A DNA stretch of 20,000 nt from an uncultured virus (IMG/VR IMGVR_UViG_3300011008_000092) (lineage: Duplodnaviria; Heunggongvirae; Uroviricota; Caudoviricetes), in the IMG/VR virus record IMGVR_UViG_3300011008_000092, one strand, 5' to 3'. The notes under the pieces were generated by a model, which was not told the DNA's origin, did not search any database, and was given only the letters and a program-made list of their open reading frames with translations. Each line of letters starts with the position of its first letter. Position 1 is the stretch's first letter. The translations under genes and the position numbers were made by a program. Positions 3 to 11,961 of the stretch are shown here, one piece after another.

Positions 3-3000
3 GAAACGCTCATCAAGTGGTACTACGTCACCTCGCCTGTTAGTCACAATCGGGTCTGCACTCTTCAATGTAGCTGCATGATGGGTGTCATCAACAGAAC
101 GTCCAAGACTTACCACAACTCCCCTGCCAAGTGCCTGAACACATGCCTCAGCGGTGTTACCTGTGTCCACTACATTGTCAATGATGATAGGAAGCTTGCC
201 TTCGGGTAACTGTCCTTCCATGCGGATGCCTAGGTCTGAGCTGCTGATGGCTGCTCCTGTCTCCTTCTTGGTGTCATACTGACTGGCTCTCGGTGCACCT
301 TTCAGTACATCGGCAACCTCACTGCCTGTCAATTCTCCAAGTACCTTGGCAACATCAAGCATGTCTGTTGCTTCTCCTGTATGCGATGGAACAGGAACCA
401 GAACAGCATTCTCAGGTATCAGAGGCTTCATCATTTCAGCAACCTCACGGACTGCCTCAGCATCACGGCTCTTCACACGTTTAGCCAAAGAACTGACGTT
501 GCGGTATTTGTCAACGGCTACGAATGGGGTAATACCGTTACCTACCTCTTCCTTCAGTGCTTCCATGAAGATGGCAGAAGCTTTCTCCTTCTCACCCTTC
601 TGAACGGCTTCCATATAGTCGTTGTTGCGACGTTCCAGCCAGTCCTCAACCTTGCGTCGTGGGTTCACTCCGTCAACGAAGTCTTTCAGTACCTGGTCGT
701 AAACCTGTGCTGCTGACTTGTAATTGATATGAAGGAAATCAGTAACCTGCTTCCAGAAGTCCTGTAGTGCCTTGCTGATATTCTTCCAGATATTTCCCCA
801 CTTGCTGGTATAGTTGCCGTCACGCTTTGACATACGTTCATACTCAGCCTTCAGACGCTCCTGACCTCGCTCGCCACTGGCGGTTGCAATAACCCCCTCA
901 ACAAGTGCGTTCTCATCAGTAATCTCAGGATTGCGCTCCTGCACGAAACGCCAAGTGTCTGCATCTGCCTTGATAAGAGATACGACATTGTTCCAACTAT
1001 CCGGATTCAACTTCCGCAAAGCTTCACTCCAAAGGTGTGCGTACTCATGGATAGGCAACTTGCCGTCAATCTTACGTGGATCGAGATAGAGTTTGCCTCT
1101 GTAGGCGAAACCATAGGTCTTACCATCAGGGGTGTGCATACGCCTCAACTCTCCGTTCTCGCTCTGGTCATTCTCTGCCTGCTTGCGGATGCGACGATTC
1201 TCACGTACATCTGTGGTAACATCAATACCCATGTCCTGCAGGTGCTCTACAAGTGCGCCACCTGTCTCACGGTCTGTCAGCACATTCTCCAACTCTTCAC
1301 GGCTGCGCTCACGACGGCTCTGCAACTCATCGTCAATGGCATCCATGTCGGCCTGCTGCTGCCGGATAGTCTCCTGTAGGGTGTTCCACTTCTCGCTTCC
1401 CTTCTCTATATTCGTTGTACCAAGGAGGAAACGGGCGGTGGAAGCTACAGAACTGCGCTTCTTACGGCTCTTCTGCAACTCATCATCGGTCATCGACTTG
1501 ATGTCAGCAGGCTTCAACGTCGGTTCTTTCTTCTGTATGGCAGCCTCAGCTCTTGCCTGTACGACAGAGGCAGATTGTTTCACCTGGTCCATAATGGAGT
1601 TCTGACGCTCCCTGATATTTGCCTTGACTTCCTCTATCGGGTCACTGATTGGGTTGTCATACTTCAGACGGAAATAATCTGCATAGGGTTTCGTCTTACG
1701 GTCACTGTCAGAAAGCCATTTGTCAAAGCGGTCTTTGGGCACACCAAGCATCTGCATGACGTGCTTATCCCACCAGCCTGGCTCATAGTTGCGCTCGTAG
1801 GCTTTCTTGGCTTCTCCCCATGTAGGATAGCCGTACATCACCTTGTGCTCGTCAAAGGTGCCATCCTCATTCTTCTGGTCTACGATATATACCCTGCCCT
1901 TGAAATTGTCAAGGTCTGCATCGTCATTAATGAAGAAATCCATGTGGTCTCCGTCGGCACCGTATTTCTTACCGATATAGCCATAGGTGTCCTTCATCTC
2001 AATACTCCAAGGCTTGCCGTTCTGATCCACACCACTGCGGACACTGCCCTTTGGGTTCTCGATAGACATCTTATAACCTCCAAACTCAACATGACCCATC
2101 TTGTAGTTACCTGCCTTCTTCTGTGCCTCAGTAGGCTCGGTATTGGTGTCTGCCTTTGCAGTCTCCAACCTGTCTTTGAAAACTGCAGGTGTCTCTTTCC
2201 TGTAGTCGGCATTACGCCTCATGAACTCTTCGATAGTGCCACTCTTGCCCTTGGTGATAGGATTGATGTCAACTCGGATTCCTTCAATCGTCAATGGCTC
2301 ATCGGTGCCAGAAAGCATGTTGAAAAGGTCATCCTCCCTTGCCTTACCCTTGTACTCCAACAGTACGTCAAGGTCACTGTCATCATTGGCAGTGCCATTG
2401 GTCCTGGAGCCGATAATCTTCATATCAACAATCTCTGCATCGGCATCATTGTCCCCCCTGACAACATCAAAGTAATCACGGACCTGATTCAATATCTCAT
2501 CCTCACTGTAGGTTTCAAGTCCTTGAATGTTGGACTTCTTGCCTTTCTCTATTCCTCCCTGTGGTTGAACAGCCAAGCTTTCACCACTGCCAGCTGTGCC
2601 ACTCTCAGGGGCAGACTGTTGGGGTTGCCCTGCTTCAATAGCTGGATGTCCATCATTGTCATGAGCTTGTGTTGCTGACAGATCTTCTTTGCCTTGATTG
2701 CTTCCTTCTGGAACTCCTGCGGTGACAGGCTTTTCATCCACTCGGTTGCTTGTGCCAGACGGTCTTTGCCCGTCGGCTGCTGGTTCGTTTCTTTCATATT
2801 CTGCTATTTCATTAAATGTTAATTCTTCATCGGCTGCCAACTGACGCATGGCATCCTCATAAGTCTCCCTGTCTCCTCCAAGGGATTCTATGTAGTCGGC
2901 AAAAGCTCCGTCAAGATAGGCAATCACCTCTGGTGTATATTCCTGCTCACTGACAGAAGGTATCCACTCACGGATGGCATCGTTGTCAGGCATACCAAGC

Positions 3001-6000
3001 TCTGCCAGTTCTGCCTCTCGCTCCTCATACTCTTCCATTGCTCGTACATACTGCTCTGCCTCGGCTATACGGTTATTGATAGTCAAATGGGAAATGTCTG
3101 ACGGGGTTCTGGCGGTGGACAGCAAATCAATGATACCATTACGCAGGTCCTCCGTACTGTACATCTTGCCTCCTCCGTTCATGTCAGGCTGGGCTTCATA
3201 CAGGTCATGAACGATTTCCTCTATGCCCTTGCCCTGTCCTTCGGCTGCCAGGTACATATTGAAGGCGTTGGTGCTCTTTCCTCTGCTGATACCTCGCTCC
3301 CATCCTGAGCCAAGCTCCTCACGCAAACCTCTCACATGGTGGTCGCCTCTGTCAAAGCCTTCCCAGTTGATAGTTCCTCTGCCAAGATTCTGAGAGATAT
3401 ACTCTGCAATATCCCTTGGCTCCATGTCATTGATGGCACTGATAGCCTGCGGGTCATCCTTATATATCTCACGGGCTATCCTGAGCTTATCCTGTGCACT
3501 TCTGGCTTTCGACATAGCTTCCATGCGCTGCTCCTGCGGGGTAGAAGGCTCGTTCCTGCCGTTACGCTCGTACAATTCAGAGATACCTTCAACGATTTCT
3601 CTCATGTGGCTGGCTTCCCTGGTCAAAGCATCCTGATAGGCTTCAAGGTCTGTGACGGATTGCGAGATCTGTTTCAGCTCCTCTGGAGTCAGCTCTATAC
3701 GTCCACTGATATAGTCATTCAATTGTCCGTTGAGTGCGTCTATCTGTGGCTGTACCTCGTCACGCTGTTTGTTCCTCAGTGCTATACGCTGGTCATTCAT
3801 GAACTTCTCTGCATCAAAAGAGTCTTGGAAATGTCTCAGCAGGTAGTTGTTGGCGTTGCCTGTAGGAGTCAATCCAAAGTTCATGGTGCCATCCTCGTTC
3901 ACTGCAATATGCTCGTCGTTCTGACCAAAGTTCCTGTTCTGTTCTGCTGGACGTAAACCTTTACGTGCCTGCGAAACGTCACTTCTGCGCTCGGTCTCAA
4001 ACTGCTGCACCTCTTCCTTGGTCATCAGATTGCTGCGCACATCAGCCCATCGTCTCTGACGGGCATCAAGGTCTTGCAGCTCTGCTTCCAGCTCTGCCTG
4101 ACGCTGCTCCAACTGTTGTGCCTCATCAGTGTCAAGAATATCCTTACCGACTGACAGCTGACTGACAACACGGCTCAACTCCTGCTGGGCTTCCGTCTGA
4201 CGGGTCTTAAGTTCGTCTTTCGACTGCTGAATGTCATTGATAACCTGTGGCTTCACCTCGGCTATTGTCTGCTCTTGCTGACGGCTGGCACCAAGCAGAT
4301 ACTCGGCTACAACTGCTGGGTCGCTGCCTTCTGCCGTGAAGTCGGGATTGCCTTCCTTCATGCCTACAATACCATTGTTATAGCGTTCCGTGCGTTGCGC
4401 TATCTCTGCCTGACGGTCTGCCTCACGCTGCTGACGCTGGGCTTCCCTGAATTGGGCTGCCTCCTGCTGGAGCTGTGCTTCTATCTGTAGCTGGTCTGTG
4501 GCTTCCATCATGTTCAACACCTCTTCCTTGGTCATCTTCATGATGTTACCATCGCCATCAGATAGCTGGATGTCGCCATCAGGATAGAAGCCGTCAACAG
4601 TAAACGGCATCGTTTCACCTGCGATAGTAAGCTCTACCTGCTGACCTGCCTCTACATTATTGCCAAGGAGCCAGTTCATCACACGGTTGCCACTCTGTTC
4701 TGCAAGATCGGCACTCAGACGCTCTGCAAACTGACCTGCTGGCATAGCCGTGCCCTGTTCCTTTATCTTGCTGACTGGCCAGTTCGTAGTCTTTGGCTGA
4801 CCTGTCTCGTCGGTATAGGTGACAGTAACAGTACCGAACTTGTTAGCAAGGTCTCCTGACTTATGATAAGCCTGCTGGCCATTGTCAAGTGTTAAGGGAA
4901 TAATCTCACCTGCCTCGTTCCTGTACGGCTCGATAGCTGCCTCATCCAGAGCTGCCTGCTGCTGATGGTGCTCTTCCATCGCTGCCTTGAAACCTTCTGC
5001 CTCGGCATAGGCATTGACATACTTCACGAAAGCATCCCTCTGCTGTGCTGTCATTGACTCTGTGTCAATAGACTCTAGGTTGCCAGTCTTGACAGCCTCA
5101 TCTATCCTCATTGCCTCTTCGGAAGGGAAATAACGGAACATTCTGACATCTGCCATTTTCATCTCATGACCGATGGACTTGATAGTTGGCTGGTCCTGAG
5201 TATAGTAGGCATCCCTTCCTCTCTGACGGGAAGTTTCAATATCAAAGGAAGGTGCTGTGTATTTACTTTCTCCTCCACCATTGTCACCTTCAGTATCAGC
5301 AGGAGGCGGTGGTGTCTCTGCCACTGGCTCCTGTGGTACTTCACCTTCAATCATTCGGGAAGTATCTACTGGTTGCTGCACCGTTCCTTCTTGGGTCTGT
5401 GCTTCTGTCTCTGTCTGGCGTAACGCTTCGTGCTCCTGGATGCGCTGGAGCATCCTCTGACGATATTCACTGACAATCTGCTGTTCCTGTTCTGTCCTGT
5501 ATATGCCATTACCAATTTCTACTATTCCGTTTCCACCTGCCAACTCTTCTGCCTCAGCTTTGCTGTGACCGTACATGGCTCGCTCTACTTCTCCTACATT
5601 GAGGTCGTACATGTCCTCTACCTCTGCTGCAACACGCTTTCCTGCGCCATTTTTTTGCTTATAGGCATTAAGACGACTAAATGCTGCATTAAGAAGAGAC
5701 TGCTCGCTTGGTGTCAATTCAGTTCCTTCGTTAGCCTTTTGCAGAATGGCAGGAATATTCTGAGCCATCGAAAGCAACTCTCGGTCCTCAGCTGTCAGTT
5801 TGTCTGGGTCTGATACTGCCTTTCTGCGAATGGCTTCATAGCTTTCTGTAAGCATATTACTCATGTCAGTGGCAGTCTCTAGCTCATCGAGGCGATTTTG
5901 AATAGCTTCTGTAGTATTCATGTCAGCTTGGAAGCCTAGCCTATTCTGTTCTGCCAATGCCTCCTCATAGCTTCTCATGGGCTTGCGCTCTATAACACCT

Positions 6001-8105
6001 CCTCGTTGGTTCAGTGTCTCGACATATATCTTGCTCCCATCCTCGACAATACGTGTACCTGTCACTGGAGAGAATTGGGCTGGCATCTTGCCTTCAATGA
6101 GGTACATTACCTTGGCTTTCATCGTCTCGGGTGCCTCACTGGCCATAAAGGAACGGTATACTGCCGACAACTGCTGCATATTCTCTGCATCAATGGGCTC
6201 GGCATCATCTTTCACAATCTCTTTTCCTGTCTGAGCCTGAGGTGTGCGCTCGTCGTTCCTGAGTATGCTCTTTAGGAAACTGGGCTGCTCTGCACCTCTG
6301 TTCGCCATCCTCAGTGCAAGCTCTACAGGGTCATCAATACCCATATCACGAAGATATTGCTTCTCTTCAGGAGTAAACTTGAACTTCTGAGCCTGCCTTG
6401 CCTGCTCTACCTGTCCTTTCATACCAAACATGTGAGGAAGTTTAAGGAGTCCTAAGCTGGCTGCACTCTCAGCATAAGCCTCGGCTGCACTCTCAGGAGT
6501 TATCTCAAAAGTGGGATCTGCCTCCTTCATGTCGTGAAGAGAGAAGCCTGCCATTACGCCTGCATCGTATCCGAAACCTAACGCTCCTCGAATAAGTCCT
6601 TCCTTGACGGCACCTTGTGCAATTTTCTCTGGCACTGCTGCTACAGCTCCACCAACCATGAGCGTACCCATCGCTGCTCCCTTCTTCATTTCCTTCCAGG
6701 TCTCACCGATATAGTCATCAAGTTCTGGAGTAAATGCGCTTCCGTCGGGGTTGATGGGTTGACCAGCCTTATAGGTAAGGTCAACAGGTGTTCCAATTAC
6801 TGGTTGCAGTCCGAATGTGGTAGCTCCATGTACGGCTGTAGAACCTATCTGAGCTGCACGGCCTGTGAGCGTATTACTCATCACCATCTGTGCTGCACGT
6901 TCTGCCACACTTCGCTCCACACCTCTTCTGACGAGTCCGTTTGTGACAATCTTGGTGAGTCCACCTGTCATAAACTTGGACAGTCCACCACCTGCTGCAC
7001 CTGTAAGTGCGTACTCAGGCATATTCAAGCCGAATGTCAAAGCACCTGTTCCTACCTTCTCCCAGAAGCCAGGCTGATAGGATTGGGCTGCAAGGTCATC
7101 GAGATAGTTCTGGAAGGGGGTACTGGTAGCCATCCTCGTGAGCTTACCAAAGTCACTGTTTCGGATAGCATTCAGAACAATGTATTCTGCACTTGACTGT
7201 GGCATCCTCTTTTCCACAAGCTGCTGTATCATCCTCTGCTGCATCGTCTGAAGAGCATAACGGCCTGCATCGTTCAGATTCTCACCATCAGTGGTAAAGT
7301 AATCATCCTGAAGCATCTGCGCTGTCATCTGGTCAACGGCTGACTGAATGGCAAGTGACGGGTCGGAAATCTCACTGGCTTCCCTCATCGTTGCCATGTC
7401 AGGACCTAAATAGCCATCAGGAGAAGTGGAAGGGGTATTCCTGCCTGCTGCATCCTTAAGATGCTGTCTGCCTGCCTCCTCTATTCTCTGTAGCTCCTTG
7501 CCGAATACATCCATACCGGCATTGACGGCCTCATCATTCTTGATGATAGAGGCATAGCGAGGATTGCCCATATCTAATGCTGATGGACGCTGCACACCAA
7601 GCCTGATACCTCGTTGGTCACTGGGTACTGTCGGGTCAAGTGCGATACCATTGCGCTGGTTATATTGCTGACGCTGCTGCATCGTGGGGTCGTTCCTCCA
7701 GAACTCATCATTCTCCTGAGCCTGCTGCTGGTTAGCCTGCTTAAGCTGGCCATGTATCATGTCGAAGGTCTTTTCAAGGTCTGTACGCTGGTCAGGACGC
7801 TGCAACTTGGAGGCATCAAACTGAGGTTGTTTATAGCCGTTGATAGGAGTTGACTGTGCTGGCTGCATAGGAGTCGGTGCTGGTGATGCTGGCTGTTGCG
7901 GTTGCGCTGCAACAGGCTCCACCATCATGTCATCAAAGTCCTGCTGACTGCCTACGTCAAGATTCAGCTCCTTACTCTTGTTATAATACCACTCTCTGTC
8001 CTCTTGGTTGTTAAGACTCTGCTTGAAATCGTCATAACTGCCTGTGTCTACGCCAGACTGCTTCATCTGCTCATAGAGCCACTTTCTATCTTCTTCGTTA
8101 TACAT
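3..8105 (-). CDS. Giant large polyvalent protein / putative injected internal virion protein, >2700 aa, C-terminus beyond the window edge
   Basis: ATG at 8105, 3 nt after the upstream TAA (MYNEEDRKWLYEQMKQSG...). I translated long stretches and found no stop; the frame ends ...GDVVPLDERF at position 3. The track lists no closed ORF in this frame, consistent with 2701 open codons. Contains NTase, InPase, HExxH and PRTase motifs. Confidence 0.93.
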   Translation of the reverse strand, partial: MYNEEDRKWLYEQMKQSGVDTGSYDDFKQSLNNQEDREWYYNKSKELNLDVGSQQDFDDMMVEPVAAQPQQPASPAPTPMQPAQSTPINGYKQPQFDASKLQRPDQRTDLEKTFDMIHGQLKQANQQQAQENDEFWRNDPTMQQRQQYNQRNGIALDPTVPSDQRGIRLGVQRPSALDMGNPRYASIIKNDEAVNAGMDVFGKELQRIEEAGRQHLKDAAGRNTPSTSPDGYLGPDMATMREASEISDPSLAIQSAVDQMTAQMLQDDYFTTDGENLNDAGRYALQTMQQRMIQQLVEKRMPQSSAEYIVLNAIRNSDFGKLTRMATSTPFQNYLDDLAAQSYQPGFWEKVGTGALTFGLNMPEYALTGAAGGGLSKFMTGGLTKIVTNGLVRRGVERSVAERAAQMVMSNTLTGRAAQIGSTAVHGATTFGLQPVIGTPVDLTYKAGQPINPDGSAFTPELDDYIGETWKEMKKGAAMGTLMVGGAVAAVPEKIAQGAVKEGLIRGALGFGYDAGVMAGFSLHDMKEADPTFEITPESAAEAYAESAASLGLLKLPHMFGMKGQVEQARQAQKFKFTPEEKQYLRDMGIDDPVELALRMANRGAEQPSFLKSILRNDERTPQAQTGKEIVKDDAEPIDAENMQQLSAVYRSFMASEAPETMKAKVMYLIEGKMPAQFSPVTGTRIVEDGSKIYVETLNQRGGVIERKPMRSYEEALAEQNRLGFQADMNTTEAIQNRLDELETATDMSNMLTESYEAIRRKAVSDPDKLTAEDRELLSMAQNIPAILQKANEGTELTPSEQSLLNAAFSRLNAYKQKNGAGKRVAAEVEDMYDLNVGEVERAMYGHSKAEAEELAGGNGIVEIGNGIYRTEQEQQIVSEYRQRMLQRIQEHEALRQTETEAQTQEGTVQQPVDTSRMIEGEVPQEPVAETPPPPADTEGDNGGGESKYTAPSFDIETSRQRGRDAYYTQDQPTIKSIGHEMKMADVRMFRYFPSEEAMRIDEAVKTGNLESIDTESMTAQQRDAFVKYVNAYAEAEGFKAAMEEHHQQQAALDEAAIEPYRNEAGEIIPLTLDNGQQAYHKSGDLANKFGTVTVTYTDETGQPKTTNWPVSKIKEQGTAMPAGQFAERLSADLAEQSGNRVMNWLLGNNVEAGQQVELTIAGETMPFTVDGFYPDGDIQLSDGDGNIMKMTKEEVLNMMEATDQLQIEAQLQQEAAQFREAQRQQREADRQAEIAQRTERYNNGIVGMKEGNPDFTAEGSDPAVVAEYLLGASRQQEQTIAEVKPQVINDIQQSKDELKTRQTEAQQELSRVVSQLSVGKDILDTDEAQQLEQRQAELEAELQDLDARQRRWADVRSNLMTKEEVQQFETERRSDVSQARKGLRPAEQNRNFGQNDEHIAVNEDGTMNFGLTPTGNANNYLLRHFQDSFDAEKFMNDQRIALRNKQRDEVQPQIDALNGQLNDYISGRIELTPEELKQISQSVTDLEAYQDALTREASHMREIVEGISELYERNGRNEPSTPQEQRMEAMSKARSAQDKLRIAREIYKDDPQAISAINDMEPRDIAEYISQNLGRGTINWEGFDRGDHHVRGLREELGSGWERGISRGKSTNAFNMYLAAEGQGKGIEEIVHDLYEAQPDMNGGGKMYSTEDLRNGIIDLLSTARTPSDISHLTINNRIAEAEQYVRAMEEYEEREAELAELGMPDNDAIREWIPSVSEQEYTPEVIAYLDGAFADYIESLGGDRETYEDAMRQLAADEELTFNEIAEYERNEPAADGQRPSGTSNRVDEKPVTAGVPEGSNQGKEDLSATQAHDNDGHPAIEAGQPQQSAPESGTAGSGESLAVQPQGGIEKGKKSNIQGLETYSEDEILNQVRDYFDVVRGDNDADAEIVDMKIIGSRTNGTANDDSDLDVLLEYKGKAREDDLFNMLSGTDEPLTIEGIRVDINPITKGKSGTIEEFMRRNADYRKETPAVFKDRLETAKADTNTEPTEAQKKAGNYKMGHVEFGGYKMSIENPKGSVRSGVDQNGKPWSIEMKDTYGYIGKKYGADGDHMDFFINDDADLDNFKGRVYIVDQKNEDGTFDEHKVMYGYPTWGEAKKAYERNYEPGWWDKHVMQMLGVPKDRFDKWLSDSDRKTKPYADYFRLKYDNPISDPIEEVKANIRERQNSIMDQVKQSASVVQARAEAAIQKKEPTLKPADIKSMTDDELQKSRKKRSSVASTARFLLGTTNIEKGSEKWNTLQETIRQQQADMDAIDDELQSRRERSREELENVLTDRETGGALVEHLQDMGIDVTTDVRENRRIRKQAENDQSENGELRRMHTPDGKTYGFAYRGKLYLDPRKIDGKLPIHEYAHLWSEALRKLNPDSWNNVVSLIKADADTWRFVQERNPEITDENALVEGVIATASGERGQERLKAEYERMSKRDGNYTSKWGNIWKNISKALQDFWKQVTDFLHINYKSAAQVYDQVLKDFVDGVNPRRKVEDWLERRNNDYMEAVQKGEKEKASAIFMEALKEEVGNGITPFVAVDKYRNVSSLAKRVKSRDAEAVREVAEMMKPLIPENAVLVPVPSHTGEATDMLDVAKVLGELTGSEVADVLKGAPRASQYDTKKETGAAISSSDLGIRMEGQLPEGKLPIIIDNVVDTGNTAEACVQALGRGVVVSLGRSVDDTHHAATLKSADPIVTNRRGDVVPLDERF
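75..520 (-). other. Type I phosphoribosyltransferase (ComF-like) domain within the giant protein
   Basis: VLVPVPSHTG motif followed by PRPP-binding loop IIIDNVVDTGNT (153-188); canonical form is hhhDDhhxTGxT. Boundaries approximate. Confidence 0.8.
680..1260 (-). other. Zincin-like metallopeptidase (MPTase) domain within the giant protein
   Basis: GKTYGFAYRGKLYLD...LPIHEYAHLW with HExxH at 1035-1049, a downstream helix ENALVEGVIA and an 'ALQDFWKQVTDFL' helix, as in polyvalent-protein MPTases. Boundaries approximate. Confidence 0.85.
1670..2150 (-). other. Inorganic pyrophosphatase (InPase) domain of polyvalent proteins
   Basis: NTEPTEAQKKAGNYKMGH...IENPKGSVRSG...TYGYI...DGDHMD...FDEHKVMYG...KTKPYADY; includes the family I PPase-like YGY and DGDxxD motifs. 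Confidence 0.92.
2200..2520 (-). other. DNA polymerase beta superfamily nucleotidyltransferase domain within the giant protein
   Basis: IIGSRTNGTANDDSDLDVLLEY (GS at 2406-2411, DxD at 2367-2375) and a third Asp in IRVDINPI. Confidence 0.88.
2549..2797 (-). CDS. Putative nested (overprinted) 82-aa protein in the +1 frame of the giant gene; function unknown
   Basis: ATG preceded by an A/T-rich island (GAATTAACATTTAATGAAATAGCAGAAT-ATG). Product looks amphipathic and helical. The host frame over the same interval is a low-complexity G/P/A/S/E/Q linker. Gln codons: 8 CAG:2 CAA in the nested frame versus 2:6 in the host frame. Confidence 0.6.
   Translation of the reverse strand: MKETNQQPTGKDRLAQATEWMKSLSPQEFQKEAIKAKKICQQHKLMTMMDIQLLKQGNPNSLPLRVAQLAVVKAWLFNHREE
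7923..8105 (-). repeat. Two tandem ~30-aa repeats at the N-terminus of the giant protein
   Basis: YNEEDRKWLYEQMKQSGVDTGSYDDFKQSL / NNQEDREWYYNKSKELNLDVGSQQDFDDMM, followed by a P/Q/A-rich linker. Confidence 0.85.
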
Positions 8106-8108
8106 AGC

Positions 8109-9434
8109 TTATTTTCTTCTGCTTGGTGGAACGTTTTGATTGTTACTATTCTTCCTACGGCTGGGAGGAGTGTTGTTGCCCTGCTTAACCTTCTTGACAG
8201 AGCCGTACTTCTTACGCATACGCTTCACAAAGGATTCAGGATTCTTCTTATTCAGTCCCTTAGTGCCTCGCCTTCCTGTCTCTATCTGGTTAGCCTTCTT
8301 CCATTCTTCATACTCGGTGGGATATAACTTTCCCCACTCCTCTGCCTCGTCAATCCAGTCCTCATTAGCCTGCCTGGTGGCGTTGGCTCTTGCATAAGAT
8401 GCGCTTGCACTGGCATTAGAGGCATTGGCTGATGCTTTTCGCTGGGCTACCTCATAGGGAAGTAGCTCTTCCATACGCTTGATCTCTGCCTCCTTCTTCT
8501 CAATATCCTTCTCAAGCTGCTTCACTCTGGCTTCGTCGTTGGCGGTCTGTGCCTTCACACGCTCCTGCTGGAGACGTGCCAGTTCTGCCTCTCTGTCAGC
8601 TTTCTGACGTGCCAGCTCCATCTGCTGGTTCTTGTAGTCAATATTGATGCTTTGCAACTCATTGGCTCGCTGGTCTGCCCTGTCTTTGTAGTACAAGGCC
8701 ATCATGTCGTTGGCTGCTTCCCTGCGCTGCTTCATAGTGTAGTCACGGAGTTTATGCTGACGGTCTGTAAGCTCTGCTCCTGTTGTAAGCTTCTGACTGG
8801 GTGCTCCAAGGATTGTTCCGACGAGATTTCCGACATGGCTCAATACGCTGCCTATCTGCTCCCATCGCTCCTGACGCTTAAGCTTCTTCTCGTCATCAAC
8901 ATTCTCCTGATAACTCTTCGTGGTATCATACTGCTGGAGAAGGGGGAATACTTCAAAAGCATCCAAAGGTGGCTGGTCATTGTCAGTAGCCCATCTGTTA
9001 TAGTCACTTACACCTTGCATGATACTGCCTTCATAGCCATTCTGGATGACATTCATGAAGCCTGTGCTCCAGTCGGGTGCATTCTTCTTCCTTTCGTGCC
9101 TGTCAACAATACCTTGCAGACTGCTCACCAACTCGGGATTCTGACTCACTACCTGCTGTGCAAGTTTCTGTCCAGGTGCACTTGATTGCTGTAAATTCGG
9201 TGCTGGCTCTTCAGTGGTAGCGTTCAGGGGCTTTTCCTCAGTTCCCTGATGCTCCAAAGATGACGGCTCAACAGTTTGAACTGTCGGTTCCTGACCTGTA
9301 GTCGGAGACAGTGTTGAGTTCTCAGTTTGTGGCTGCTCACTACTGGAAGTGCTGGTGGCAGATGAAACTTCTTTCGTTTTGTCCTCACCTCCAACAATAT
9401 CATTCGTCGCCTTGAAGATGTCGGTTATTGCCAT
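8109..9434 (-). CDS. Hypothetical phage protein, 441 aa; probable internal virion/ejection protein
   Basis: Disordered S/T/P/Q-rich N-terminus, Gly/hydrophobic segment IGSVLSHVGNLVGTILG, long coiled coil, Ala/Ser tract, basic tail with a PPSRRK repeat. Tightly coupled to both neighbours (15 and 3 nt gaps). Function inferred from composition and position. Confidence 0.7.
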   Translation of the reverse strand: MAITDIFKATNDIVGGEDKTKEVSSATSTSSSEQPQTENSTLSPTTGQEPTVQTVEPSSLEHQGTEEKPLNATTEEPAPNLQQSSAPGQKLAQQVVSQNPELVSSLQGIVDRHERKKNAPDWSTGFMNVIQNGYEGSIMQGVSDYNRWATDNDQPPLDAFEVFPLLQQYDTTKSYQENVDDEKKLKRQERWEQIGSVLSHVGNLVGTILGAPSQKLTTGAELTDRQHKLRDYTMKQRREAANDMMALYYKDRADQRANELQSINIDYKNQQMELARQKADREAELARLQQERVKAQTANDEARVKQLEKDIEKKEAEIKRMEELLPYEVAQRKASANASNASASASYARANATRQANEDWIDEAEEWGKLYPTEYEEWKKANQIETGRRGTKGLNKKNPESFVKRMRKKYGSVKKVKQGNNTPPSRRKNSNNQNVPPSRRK

Positions 9435-9449
9435 GATGCCCTCCTTCCT

Positions 9450-9953
9450 TTAGAATGGTAACAAGTTAGCCATGTTGGAAAGTCCACCTGCTGCATCAGT
9501 GATAGCCTTGCCTTTCTCCTGTGCCTTGCCTAGCTTAGTAGATGCAATGTACTGCGTCATCTCACTGATCTGATTGTCGGCATTGTTCCAGACGGCCTCC
9601 TTCTGAGCTTCACCTGATGCCGCCTGCTTGCCTATCATGTCAGTAACGGCCTGAGCTGCTGCCTGCTTCTGTAGAGCCAGACTCTCATCTGTACCACCGG
9701 CTACTACGTTAGTATCAGCTGCCTGTTTGGTCTTTGCGTTGAGAATTTCCTTCGCTTTCGTCTGTGCACCTTGTGCAGCTGCCGACTGCGTAGGGTCTTG
9801 ATAATACACCTTATCACGATGGTCTTTCACATCCTTGATTCTCTTCTCATAGGCTTCAATGGCCTGATTGTAGCCTTCGTTTACTGCATCTGAGGCGAAT
9901 ATGCCTCCGATAGCAGATCCAATGCCTCCGATAATACTTCCAAATAATCCCAT
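9450..9953 (-). CDS. Hypothetical phage protein, 167 aa; probable small ejection/pilot-type virion protein
   Basis: Gly-rich hydrophobic N-terminus MGLFGSIIGGIGSAIGGIFAS, Ala/Gln-rich helical body and Gly-containing C-terminal helix; first gene of the operon. Confidence 0.72.
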   Translation of the reverse strand: MGLFGSIIGGIGSAIGGIFASDAVNEGYNQAIEAYEKRIKDVKDHRDKVYYQDPTQSAAAQGAQTKAKEILNAKTKQAADTNVVAGGTDESLALQKQAAAQAVTDMIGKQAASGEAQKEAVWNNADNQISEMTQYIASTKLGKAQEKGKAITDAAGGLSNMANLLPF

Positions 9954-9979
9954 AATTTTGCAAAATTAATATTATGCAG

Positions 9980-10063
9980 CAAAGATAAATAATCCATTTT
10001 AGCCTCTAATGATAAATTACGCAATGCCTTTGGCATCACTTTCGGAAAAAAGTCTTATCTTTG
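9980..10063. promoter_or_regulatory. Divergent Bacteroidota -7 promoter elements (TATCTTTG) for the ejection operon and the 126-aa gene
   Basis: CAAAGATA at 9980-9987 (minus-strand TATCTTTG) and TATCTTTG at 10056-10063; neither has a -33 TTTG at the 19-20 bp spacing seen in the host promoters. Confidence 0.6.
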
Positions 10064-10085
10064 CCACAAAATCATAATAGTTACT

Positions 10086-10466
10086 ATGGAAGAAAAGAAA
10101 GGAAAGAAGAAAAGAGAAGCTACCTCTGGTTCATTCAAGAAGGGGCATGAAAAAATGGGAGGCAGAAAGAAAGGTACACCCAATAAGATGACAACAAATC
10201 TTAGAAGGGTGTTGGAAGAGCAACTGCGTCCTCACATTGAAAAGCTTGACAAGTACATTGAGAGCATAAAGGAGCCTGACAAAAAGGCTGCTGTACTTGC
10301 ACAATGGGCACCATACGTCCTGCCTAAGCTCTCCAATATCACTCTTGGTGAGGACGGACAGCGTGACATCACCACTGAGGAATACATCAAGGAGCTTAAC
10401 TCCAACTACAAAAAGGCAGACATCCATATAGATGTTGCCAAAATAAAAATTGTCAATAACGGCTAG
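10086..10466 (+). CDS. Small basic phage protein, terminase small subunit-like
   Basis: N-terminal SGSFKKGHEKMGGRKKGTPNK motif (FKKG...GRxKGxxNK) typical of TerS-like proteins, followed by helices and YVLPKL; A-rich start region; overlaps the integrase 3' end convergently by 14 bp. Confidence 0.6.
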   Translation: MEEKKGKKKREATSGSFKKGHEKMGGRKKGTPNKMTTNLRRVLEEQLRPHIEKLDKYIESIKEPDKKAAVLAQWAPYVLPKLSNITLGEDGQRDITTEEYIKELNSNYKKADIHIDVAKIKIVNNG

Positions 10467-11961
10467 TCACTAGCACAAAACTATTTTTGTGTCTTACCTG
10501 ACGCTCATATAGCTGTGACTGGTCTTTGTCCAGATTCTCCACTTTTATCTGGATTGTACTACGCTCTGGGATGCCGTCAATCATGCCCATCAGCTTTCCT
10601 ATAACCTCATCAACATTGTTGAAACCAATATCTTCAAGCTTGGCTACTACCCTGCCTCTGTAGTATGCCGTTCCCCTTATCATCTGCTTCTTGGAGAATC
10701 TTTCAAACTTATCTTCCTGCTCCTCAGGTAAGCTGGAAGAGTCATCAGTAAAGAAAATCTTCTCGATCACTCGGTCATTGAGATTCCAGGCAGGAGAGAA
10801 GTCCACCTTCCTGATATATCCTCTCGTAATCTTGTGCTGTGAGTGGTTCATGGCAAAGCCTACCTCTGACTCAGACGCTCCACAGTCATTCTGTGCAACA
10901 GTTGCCCATGTATGCCTGAACGTATATATAGAATAGGTGTGTCCATGTTCAATACCTAGTGAATCTTCACATATCTGCTTAATGCCGATGTTGGCATTGG
11001 CGTTGAAACTGTCACTCGTACTCATCCTCTGATGGAAGTTCAGAAGATACTCTGAACTGCTGTCATCCATGTATTTCTCAAAAATAGGCTTCAGGATGTC
11101 GGGAACTCTCATCTCTATATAGGCATTATCAGCCCTTGCCTTTCTCGTTTTCCTGCGTTCATAGCCGATAATACCATTCCTGTAGTTCTCTTTCTTCAGG
11201 TAATATAAGTCGATTGTATTGATACCTGCCAGACAGAGTGTCATCATGGCCACATCCCTTCCAAGCTCTGCCAAAGGAAACTTCATGGGGCTTTCAGGAA
11301 TAGGAGCTGCGAAGAATGCCCTACAGTCATCCAGGCTGATGGCTTTCTTCTCAGGGGTATCTGCCTTCGGTATCTTCACCTTAGGCCAAGGATTCGTCGT
11401 TATCCTTATCAGCCCAGTATCGTAATCATTGTAATCAATGAGAGCCTGCTTGAAGATCTGTCTTACACAGATTGGATACATCTCCTTAGCTCTTGCCGTG
11501 TTGCTCATGGATTTTATCCATCCATTGATAAACATGGATGTCAGGTGGGAAAACATCACTTTATCAGTACCGGCATAACGCTCTAGGTGCTGGTAGGCAA
11601 GCTCATAGTTTCTGGCATTGCGCTGCTGACCGTTACTATACATCTCGTCATGGTACTGTCGGGCATAGTCGGAAAAACATACGTCCAATGTGCCCTGCTC
11701 CAAAAACTGTACCACATCTTTCACACACCAGAAAGATGTATCCACTTTCTTAAGACGCTCATAGTAGTCGGCTATCTTCGTCGTACAGAATTTCAACACA
11801 AATGGGTCGGTCACTACGTGCTTCTTATCACACCCTCTGGAGTCCACCATCTTATCTGTTTTCATGTAGTGGATACCTTTGTTATGAATCACTCTGATGT
11901 AGACTGGCCAGTAGCCATCTGTGCGCTGTTTCTGTACCACAGCTTTGAATGTTGTTGCCAT
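10453..11961 (-). CDS. Tyrosine recombinase/integrase (Bacteroidota type: arm-binding, SAM-like and catalytic domains) with C-terminal extension
   Basis: N-terminal DGYWPVYIRVIH arm-binding motif; catalytic-domain motifs CLAGINTIDL, RRKT, YTFRHTWAT, MNH and nucleophile Tyr in TRGY (10816-10818). Confidence 0.93.
   Translation of the reverse strand: MATTFKAVVQKQRTDGYWPVYIRVIHNKGIHYMKTDKMVDSRGCDKKHVVTDPFVLKFCTTKIADYYERLKKVDTSFWCVKDVVQFLEQGTLDVCFSDYARQYHDEMYSNGQQRNARNYELAYQHLERYAGTDKVMFSHLTSMFINGWIKSMSNTARAKEMYPICVRQIFKQALIDYNDYDTGLIRITTNPWPKVKIPKADTPEKKAISLDDCRAFFAAPIPESPMKFPLAELGRDVAMMTLCLAGINTIDLYYLKKENYRNGIIGYERRKTRKARADNAYIEMRVPDILKPIFEKYMDDSSSEYLLNFHQRMSTSDSFNANANIGIKQICEDSLGIEHGHTYSIYTFRHTWATVAQNDCGASESEVGFAMNHSQHKITRGYIRKVDFSPAWNLNDRVIEKIFFTDDSSSLPEEQEDKFERFSKKQMIRGTAYYRGRVVAKLEDIGFNNVDEVIGKLMGMIDGIPERSTIQIKVENLDKDQSQLYERQVRHKNSFVLVTSRY

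Follow-up and report, generated by a model that had tools for sequence, protein, structure and literature searches.

Can the gene for a giant phage protein contain a second, complete gene that is read in another frame? The question is raised by a stretch of 20,000 nucleotides (nt) from an uncultured virus of the Caudoviricetes (IMG/VR record IMGVR_UViG_3300011008_000092). We call this stretch the window, and its minus strand carries the first 2701 codons of a giant polyvalent-protein gene (3..8105, 3' end open; identified from the list of open reading frames [ORFs] and Pfam matches). Polyvalent proteins are very large, combine several enzymes in one chain, and are believed to be delivered by phages into host cells. 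According to the original prediction, which was made from the sequence alone, an ORF of 82 amino acids (aa) in the +1 frame of this gene is a real overlapping gene. We find that the ORF has counterparts at the same place in homologous giant genes. The family that these ORFs form is very probably a real coding gene, and we put at roughly 65% the probability that the ORF in the window functions as a member of this family of overlapping genes.

The nested ORF occupies 2549..2797 on the minus strand, from an ATG at 2795-2797 to a TAG at 2549-2551 (product P0001), as defined by the ORF list, the family hidden Markov model (HMM), and AlphaFold2 (AF2). The giant gene reads the same DNA, in what we call the host frame, as residues 1770-1853 (2547..2798, minus strand), a spacer rich in G, E, Q, A, S, and P and poor in hydrophobic residues that is characterized by its ratio of nonsynonymous to synonymous change (dN/dS), composition, and identity. 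The features that first drew attention to this site are present as described. An A/T-rich island ends at the out-of-frame ATG, with A at -3 and -12, and its 31 nt (2798..2828, minus strand) have a GC content of 0.23 compared with 0.50 for the whole gene, which places it among the most AT-rich 0.2% of the gene's 31-nt segments. Based on its GC content and weak structure, this island is a putative initiation region independent of a Shine-Dalgarno (SD) sequence. Across the whole gene, glutamine is encoded by CAG and CAA at a ratio of 150:35; over the span, this ratio is 2:6 for the host frame but 8:2 for the nested frame, and the preference for CAG thus does move to the nested frame. The product was expected to be helical and the host frame disordered, and AF2 predicts four helices for the product, while the fraction of hydrophobic residues is 0.30 in the nested frame and 0.11 in the host frame. 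The TAG does fall shortly before the nucleotidyltransferase (NTase) module, whose start (SNIQGLE) lies 15 nt past it, with the Pfam NTP_transf_2 match ~120 nt past it.

The length of the ORF was dropped as evidence for a gene. A +1 ORF of at least 82 aa that starts with ATG arises in 57.5% of 2000 synonymous-codon shuffles of the giant gene, and 71% of codon-order shuffles also reach 82 aa, because spacers without hydrophobic residues rarely give stops in the +1 frame. Given the host protein sequence and codon usage, the probability that the +1 frame is open is 0.13 in the window and 0.09 to 0.35 per locus across the homologous loci described below. It is the comparison of sequences among these loci, and not ORF length, that lifts the nested ORF above chance.

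Homologous loci and selection in the two frames

A tblastn search with the 82-aa product against 51 loci gave one match (32% identity over 81 residues), in a distant homologue of the giant gene (L048) that has an open +1 ORF at the same place. A two-member profile searched against 1.84 billion representative proteins recovered the 82-aa product itself, together with four other small proteins (E values of 5e-9 to 9e-4), and a six-member profile searched against 5.8 billion clusters recovered 13 proteins of 52 to 96 aa, the window's exact protein among them. The expectation that standard gene callers would miss the nested gene is therefore only partly right, since this protein and 12 relatives are already present, unnamed, in public protein catalogues. 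Profile scans of IMG/VR identified 11 distinct viral contigs besides the window. In all 11, a homologous giant gene has, at the corresponding place, an intact +1-frame ORF of 70 to 95 aa that starts with ATG, and the giant ORF is open over the whole ~6.2-kb locus. Nucleotide identity over the overlap is at least 70% in only 4 of the 66 locus pairs. The family consensus is MNRIxEAxxWIxSL..EQL...VKEAKxKYKxKVP....I....L.KEQKLL...RLYLITMYLEEH, and the carriers are a clade of temperate podovirus-like phages. From these comparisons, the nested ORF appears to belong to a conserved family of small, mostly basic, four-helix proteins of about 70 to 95 aa. AF2 predicts four helices both for the member from locus L056 (mean predicted local distance difference test score [pLDDT] of 95.3 and predicted template modeling score [pTM] of 0.83) and for the window member (pLDDT of 81.5 and pTM of 0.69), and the hydrophobic fraction over the span is 0.30 to 0.36 in the nested frame versus 0.08 to 0.15 in the host frame in all 12 loci.

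The comparison of starts, stops, and dN/dS in both frames of homologous loci had been put forward as the way to check for a real gene. The ORF is kept in 11 of the 11 other loci. In a host-protein-guided alignment of eight loci, identity at the first, second, and third codon positions of the host frame is 0.70, 0.78, and 0.42 in the conserved module upstream of the nested ORF (233 columns) and 0.47, 0.56, and 0.65 over the nested ORF itself (75 columns), and third-position identity downstream of the nested ORF is about 0.32. Over the nested ORF, the third codon positions of the giant gene are its best-conserved positions. When the same alignment is read in the nested frame, the second position is better conserved than the first and the first better than the third, as in an ordinary gene. 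Amino acid identity of the host frame drops from 0.61 to 0.30 between the upstream module and the nested span. The window and L048, taken as a pair, have identities at the three host positions of 0.58, 0.67, and 0.37 outside the nested span (527 codons) and of 0.50, 0.42, and 0.57 inside it (72 codons).

Selection was estimated with a scripted, OLGenie-like method, the idea of which is taken from PMC7531306 (in the ratios below, N and S denote nonsynonymous and synonymous, with the giant gene named first). Over the 55 pairs that exclude the window, dNN/dNS for the nested frame is 0.39 (bootstrap 95% confidence interval [CI], 0.25 to 0.57; 0 of 2000 replicates at or above 1), whereas dNN/dSN for the host frame is 1.30 (CI, 1.00 to 1.72). 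In the four closest pairs, the values are 0.25 for the nested frame and 0.80 for the host frame. Mean pairwise amino acid identity is 0.43 for the nested frame versus 0.34 for the host frame, and the nested frame has the higher value in 26 of 28 pairs. In 11 of 12 loci, synonymous codon choice is also closer to the usage of the giant gene when the nested frame is read than when the host frame is, the glutamine signal being general, and in the window it favors the nested frame by +0.33 bit per codon. Judged from these alignments, the host-frame spacer is without purifying selection of its own. Since both selection and codon usage favor the nested frame, this suggests that the small gene is the older, dominant frame and that the linker is the overprint. 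The description of the small gene as overprinted on a linker is thus probably the wrong way round, while the view that it is a real overlapping gene is supported by its conservation in all 11 homologous loci and by purifying selection in the nested frame. RNAalifold found no conserved pairs in the 12-locus alignment.

The start site has a consistent context in this family. The minimum free energy of the region from -30 to +20 around the window's ATG is -0.2 kcal/mol versus a median of -8.9, and only 0.3% of the segments compared are equally weakly structured. In all 12 loci, this region is among the least structured segments of its locus (fraction of 0.002 to 0.15; geometric mean of 0.017). 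The stretch is A-rich in the 12 loci, with G nearly absent from -20 to -11 and with no SD motif, and in 8 of 8 loci the 48 nt upstream of the start have a GC content of 0.27 to 0.42 compared with 0.47 to 0.54 for the locus. mRNAs of Bacteroidetes lack SD sequences, and their initiation is tuned by structure, as described in PMC6847099. The nested start context fits initiation of this type, so far as sequence can indicate it, and the SD-less, A-rich start first noticed in the window recurs in 12 of 12 loci. In every locus but the window, whose ATG is 10 codons upstream, the ATG coincides with the family's first residue or misses it by no more than one codon (11 of 12 loci). In 9 of 12 loci, the frame is closed by a stop no more than 4 codons before the ATG, an arrangement that favors independent initiation and disfavors frameshifting. 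At some loci, the open +1 frame extends further 5': an additional in-frame ATG is found 11 codons upstream in L069 and L070 (2965-2997), and the frame of L056 (2725-3000) is open for 92 codons upstream, so N-terminally longer isoforms are possible there.

Searches beyond these loci were negative. The family was found at chance level in 2 of 401 genomes of the same family (E values of 0.003 and 0.009) and in 0 of 401 genomes of the same order, in a search whose positive control picked it up in all of 5 viral records. Neither blastn nor tblastn matched any INPHARED phage, and 50,697 GenBank phage records gave no family match. Scans of genome contigs found none in the first and two candidates, without the locus, in the second. 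No case of the small protein fused in frame into a longer protein was seen among 8000 scored candidates, which is weak evidence. A search for close relatives of the window lineage for dN/dS found none that were usable: the viral record G002 is 100% identical, a viral scan with the host-frame piece of the window matched a single stretch and yielded no locus, and 1 of 61 relative genomes has a weak match. At the protein level, the spacers of four distant giant proteins (P0003, P0006, P0012, and P0061) share host-frame motifs of the window (P...G.P..EG and, in P0003, INQIIADDE), and by sequence these four genes probably hide the same nested gene.

No consistent family or fold match was found for the small protein in Pfam, PHROGs, NCBIfam, PADLOC, or a PDB sequence profile, nor in Foldseek searches of PDB and BFVD, in VIA-align wide, or in the ESM Atlas; the best of the scores, none of them consistent, were an E value of 0.0012 for one of six members, a PDB Z score of 4.9, and Foldseek E values above 3. 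One weak lead from the PDB profile, to the SAM domain of the ephrin receptor EphA2 (positions 8-56 of family profile A6; E value of 0.03; W..SL motif), was rejected since the fold searches gave it no support. Cysteine is absent from 11 of the 12 nested proteins, none has an N-terminal hydrophobic stretch, and there is no signal peptide.

The window's copy as the outlier of its family

The window's copy is the most divergent member of the family, and its function is less certain for that reason. Several observations weigh against a functional gene at this site. In leave-one-out scoring, the HMM built from the 11 other loci gives the window copy 27.9 bits compared with 80 to 103 bits for the others. 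Its identity to the other members is 0.25, while other lineages keep 0.40 at a similar divergence of the host module. The canonical methionine is replaced (KDR), the ATG being 10 codons further upstream, and the motifs KEAKxKY and RLYLxTMYLEEH are degraded. Over window pairs, at near-saturated distances, dNN/dNS is 0.88, and the openness of the window's +1 frame is weak evidence alone at its probability of 0.13. The comparison of the window with L048 gives BLAST similarity in all three frames (35, 43, and 30 bits), so nucleotide homology contributes to the similarity in the nested frame. The loci are related, and the counts across them are not independent. The alignment behind the selection estimate was guided by the nested protein and so favors the nested frame, though the host-guided analysis agrees with it. 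There is also no RNA run among the listed runs that carry the stretch.

The low score, the reduced identity, the lost canonical start with degraded motifs, and the dNN/dNS of 0.88 at a chance of openness that is not small are what a decaying relic would present: the family would be real, and the window's copy would have stayed open by luck in a stop-poor spacer. We think this unlikely, although it has a real claim to attention, given what the copy retains. Its ATG has been kept within the least structured 0.3% and the most AT-rich 0.2% of segments, and codon choice still favors the nested frame, both per codon and in the glutamine ratios of 8:2 versus 2:6. In 11 of 11 window pairs, sites that are silent for the giant protein only differ less (0.35 to 0.49) than sites of the converse class (0.49 to 0.69), that is, pSN is below pNS. 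The hydrophobic pattern and the four helices are retained at a pLDDT of 81.5, the segment of the host protein that is predicted to be bound (see below) has co-diverged and has not vanished, and near-identical copies are present in 20 DNA runs, which belong to 15 animal-gut studies. We conclude that the window's copy, very divergent as it is, is probably still functional.

The upstream module and the predicted complex

The nested gene lies at a boundary in the giant protein. Immediately 5' of it is a conserved module, residues ~1526-1769 of the giant protein (2799..3530, minus strand; defined by alignment and co-occurrence), which is present together with the nested gene in 12 of 12 loci. Host proteins align well 5' of the nested gene (EPRD...HRIEEAR...EAWAEAYHLTPEERExFEDY...IINQIIAD) and diverge completely 3' of it. 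The first downstream Pfam domain depends on the locus: among 11 loci it is NTase, PBECR1, InPase, or Zeta toxin, or there is none nearby. The family was found in 0 of 48 other NTase-anchored loci, and of the NTase-anchored loci (43 metagenome and 6 viral), only L048 shares the spacer. By these alignments, the nested gene keeps company not with the NTase but with the conserved N-terminal portion of the giant protein, where that portion meets a variable enzyme array. One locus, L081 (IMGVR_UViG_3300028914_000232, about 1501-2100), has a module that runs straight into InPase; it is without the INQIIAD helix, the spacer, and the nested ORF, all three together. This pattern indicates that the spacer exists where the small gene exists, and L081, as a natural "minus" form, is useful for dating the overlap.

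Complex prediction was carried out with a 300-aa upstream module of L056 and the nested protein of the same locus, with small alignments of our own making. The interface score ipSAE was 0.81, 0.78, and 0.81, compared with 0.00 for the best of three controls; at the mark applied to this score, 116 of 157 solved complexes pass, as do 2 of 215 mismatched pairs, although these counts are only a rough guide when such alignments are used. At least 97% of contacts are common to the runs, and the pLDDT of the partner is at least 89. The predicted interface consists of residues 253-298 of the L056 module, the last ~45 residues before the linker, which form helices encoded immediately 5' of the nested ATG. 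The contact residues in the model are 264, 278, 281, and 282 of the module and 4, 59, and 63 of the partner. In relatives, these are the helices from EAWAEAY to IINQIIA in the alignment given above. Their inferred counterpart in the window, from the alignment, is the host segment of about residues 1710-1769 (2799..2978, minus strand; AIREW...YTPE...FADYI...FNEIAE), which has diverged, with insertions, and in which the EELTFNEIAE encoded by the A/T-rich leader corresponds to the relatives' IINQIIAD helix. The binding is a matter of model confidence, computed in a single job for L056 and not for the window and from small alignments of our own, which belongs with the points that weigh against our reading of the window. 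We nevertheless lean, by a modest degree, toward the view that the small protein binds the upstream helices of the giant protein.

The position of the predicted contact bears on what the product was expected to do. It had been suggested that the ORF could be an immunity gene, whose product inhibits downstream enzyme domains of the NTase, MPTase, InPase, or PRTase type. Small helical inhibitors beside toxin domains are common, and in the window and in L055 the ORF does stop shortly before the NTase module. However, the first downstream domain varies among the 11 loci, the family is missing from the 48 other NTase-anchored loci while the upstream module is always there, and searches of NCBIfam and PADLOC gave no consistent match. 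Because the predicted contact is with the upstream helices as well, an immunity function is very improbable. The other half of the suggestion, a partner or chaperone of the giant protein, fares better and agrees in silico with the ipSAE of 0.81, except that the link would be to the upstream module instead of to the enzyme domains.

The same contact could be read another way, in that there is no separate protein and the +1 frame is entered by programmed ribosomal frameshifting, as in the tail-chaperone G/GT and dnaX models, to give a truncated giant protein with an alternative helical C terminus. Both frames are on one mRNA, and such a fused form would be structurally sensible because the +1 product directly follows the helices of the predicted contact. 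We give this very little credence, since an ATG is present in 12 of 12 loci and, in all but the window, sits at or next to the family's first residue; the stops just upstream in 9 of 12 loci leave almost no room for a shift site, and the start context resembles an initiation site. At the level of the family, a chance ORF in a stop-poor +1 frame, with similarity due to nucleotide homology or to a noncoding element such as an RNA structure or a recombination site, is disfavored to the point of being scarcely credible: ORFs of this length are frequent in shuffles, the window and L048 are similar in all three frames, and the region is the junction of conserved and variable parts of the giant gene, but the codon-position pattern is frame specific, dN/dS is 0.39 versus 1.30, ORF and ATG are kept in all 11 loci despite the low probability of openness in each, the AF2 pLDDT reaches 95, and there are no conserved RNA pairs.

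With conservation, frame, selection, start context, and a confident fold established for the family, the mechanism that we propose starts with translation of the small ORF, which would occur from its own ATG in the A-rich, G-poor, unstructured, SD-less stretch. Read one base earlier, this DNA would give the giant protein a hydrophobic-poor spacer that evolves freely and separates its conserved N-terminal part from the variable enzyme array. The small protein most likely grips, if the model is right, two or three helices encoded immediately 5' of its own start. It may thus be an obligate partner subunit, an assembly factor or chaperone, that is translated from the shared mRNA next to the growing giant chain and that either caps the conserved part of the giant protein at its end or acts there as a chaperone, with assembly in cis and during translation.

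A more specific history can be offered tentatively, though we would not call it probable. An older small gene may have been swallowed by an out-of-frame read-through fusion: two coding regions would have become one by read-through of the small gene with the frame shifted by one base, the linker would be the shadow of that gene, and its product would clamp during translation onto the adjacent helices. The result would be a gene-in-gene holo-complex at the joint between a conserved delivery part and a swappable effector array. If this were general, one route to a polyvalent protein, and to the upkeep of its junctions, would be the read-through of preexisting genes in a different frame.

The nearest known arrangement, by analogy, is that of the spanin genes of phage lambda, where Rz1 lies in the +1 frame of Rz. 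The products of Rz and Rz1 form a complex, the two-component spanin (PMC5295617 and PMC6139136). Here, as there, a small phage gene is wholly embedded in the +1 frame of a larger gene, and two products may serve one function in a complex, which has been shown for Rz/Rz1 and is only predicted for the nested protein. The differences are considerable. The nested proteins lack a signal peptide, and 11 of the 12 have no cysteine and therefore no lipobox. The nested gene lies outside a lysis cassette, in the gene for a 6183-aa polyvalent virion-type protein; the overlapped part of the host protein is a spacer that seems to be under no selection of its own; and there is no similarity in sequence or fold. 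We rejected an identification as a spanin because the lipoprotein features (signal peptide and lipobox cysteine) are absent.

Genes nested in other genes are familiar from small viruses and phages; gene E of phiX174 lies within gene D. In classic overprinting, the nested frame is usually young and disordered. Compared with the overprinted genes covered by a published overview (PMC8227390), the present case is similar in that both frames appear to be read, synonymous change is suppressed in one of them, and one product is ordered and the other disordered. In contrast, the nested frame here looks older, folded, and selected, while the long host frame supplies the disordered novelty, and the phage has a double-stranded DNA (dsDNA) genome of ~40 to 60 kb, in which coding space is not short. 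The usual picture of overprinting is reversed because the folded, selected frame is the short one.

Dedicated small chaperones and adaptors of translocated effectors are known from type III secretion (T3SS chaperones) and type VI secretion (Eag-type adaptors). The functional analogy is that a small protein whose gene accompanies that of its client would grip a short helical segment beside the cargo. There is no homology or fold match (the PDB and Foldseek scores are those given above), the nested proteins are mostly basic, monomeric four-helix units, and they are encoded by overlap and not by adjacency.

The giant protein itself matches the polyvalent proteins described by Iyer et al. in 2017 (PMC5512222) in that InPase, Pol-beta NTase, ART-PolyVal, PBECR5, LPD3, and LPD14 domains occur in one polypeptide whose gene adjoins the portal gene. 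An embedded second gene falls outside the architecture described in the available text of that paper, in which the words "overlapping" and "frameshift" do not occur. A literature search for polyvalent proteins with overlapping genes or alternative reading frames found nothing relevant. Embedded genes have rarely been demonstrated in large dsDNA phages, and none has been described for polyvalent proteins. The locus combines an unusually clean evolutionary signature with a mechanism open to testing, in which the gene of a client holds that of its small partner. The case implies that the "disordered linkers" of giant phage proteins can hide real genes, and the nested gene offers a concrete handle on the assembly or packaging of giant proteins.

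The giant gene and its prophage

The giant gene is, on the evidence of its domains, a polyvalent-protein gene in the sense of PMC5512222. Its full length, in the viral record G002, which is 100% identical to the window over the 900 nt compared, is 6183 codons. Pfam matches of the giant protein to InPase (E value of 4e-45) and PBECR5 (E value of 2.5e-21) are above the Pfam cutoffs, LPD3 barely passes (29.9 bits versus a cutoff of 27), and the matches to ART-PolyVal and to the Pol-beta NTase (NTP_transf_2), the latter weak, are below the cutoffs. The enzyme domains downstream of the nested gene, the NTase module and InPase, span 1713..2534 on the minus strand (from Pfam and conservation). The conserved SNIQGLE start of the NTase module is at 2514-2534, the weak NTP_transf_2 match is at 2247-2429, and InPase is at 1713-2129.

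Among the prophage genes are those for a tyrosine integrase, the large terminase (TerL), a P22-like portal, and an SU10-like capsid protein and adaptor. In the window, the integrase gene (10453-11961) is followed within 8109-11961 by two unassigned ORFs of 441 and 167 aa and then by the 6183-aa giant gene. In G002, the giant gene is followed by the genes for the P22-like portal, TerL, the SU10-like capsid protein, the adaptor, and a second giant ORF of 2744 aa, which has no Pfam match in its first 2210 residues. The integration site adjoins the host gene for pyruvate phosphate dikinase (PPDK), and because this flanking PPDK is in the same 90%-identity cluster as a protein named Prevotella sp., the host is, by sequence, Prevotella-like.

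The giant gene also has antisense ORFs. There are 12 such ORFs of at least 60 aa that start with ATG, the longest being 206 aa (367 aa with a TTG start), and one antisense ORF (1575..2678, plus strand) overlaps the nested gene. Long antisense ORFs were considered as the cause of the nested ORF and were rejected in that role, as only 3 of the 7 loci that were checked have an open stretch of at least 100 aa at the site on the strand opposite the nested frame. Since they cover the site in only these 3 of 7 related loci, the antisense ORFs of the giant gene look like a by-product of codon bias.

In gut metagenome contigs from four DNA runs, the listed differences from the window concentrate in the NTase/InPase region, at 1886-2148. 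Among these listed differences, none lies within 2465-3068, which covers the nested gene and the upstream helices, while run X5 has about 25 in the 263 nt of 1886-2148. Run X3 has joints within 1829-2385 (a 79-nt skip and a 557-nt step back), which suggests that rearranged variants of the enzyme region exist.

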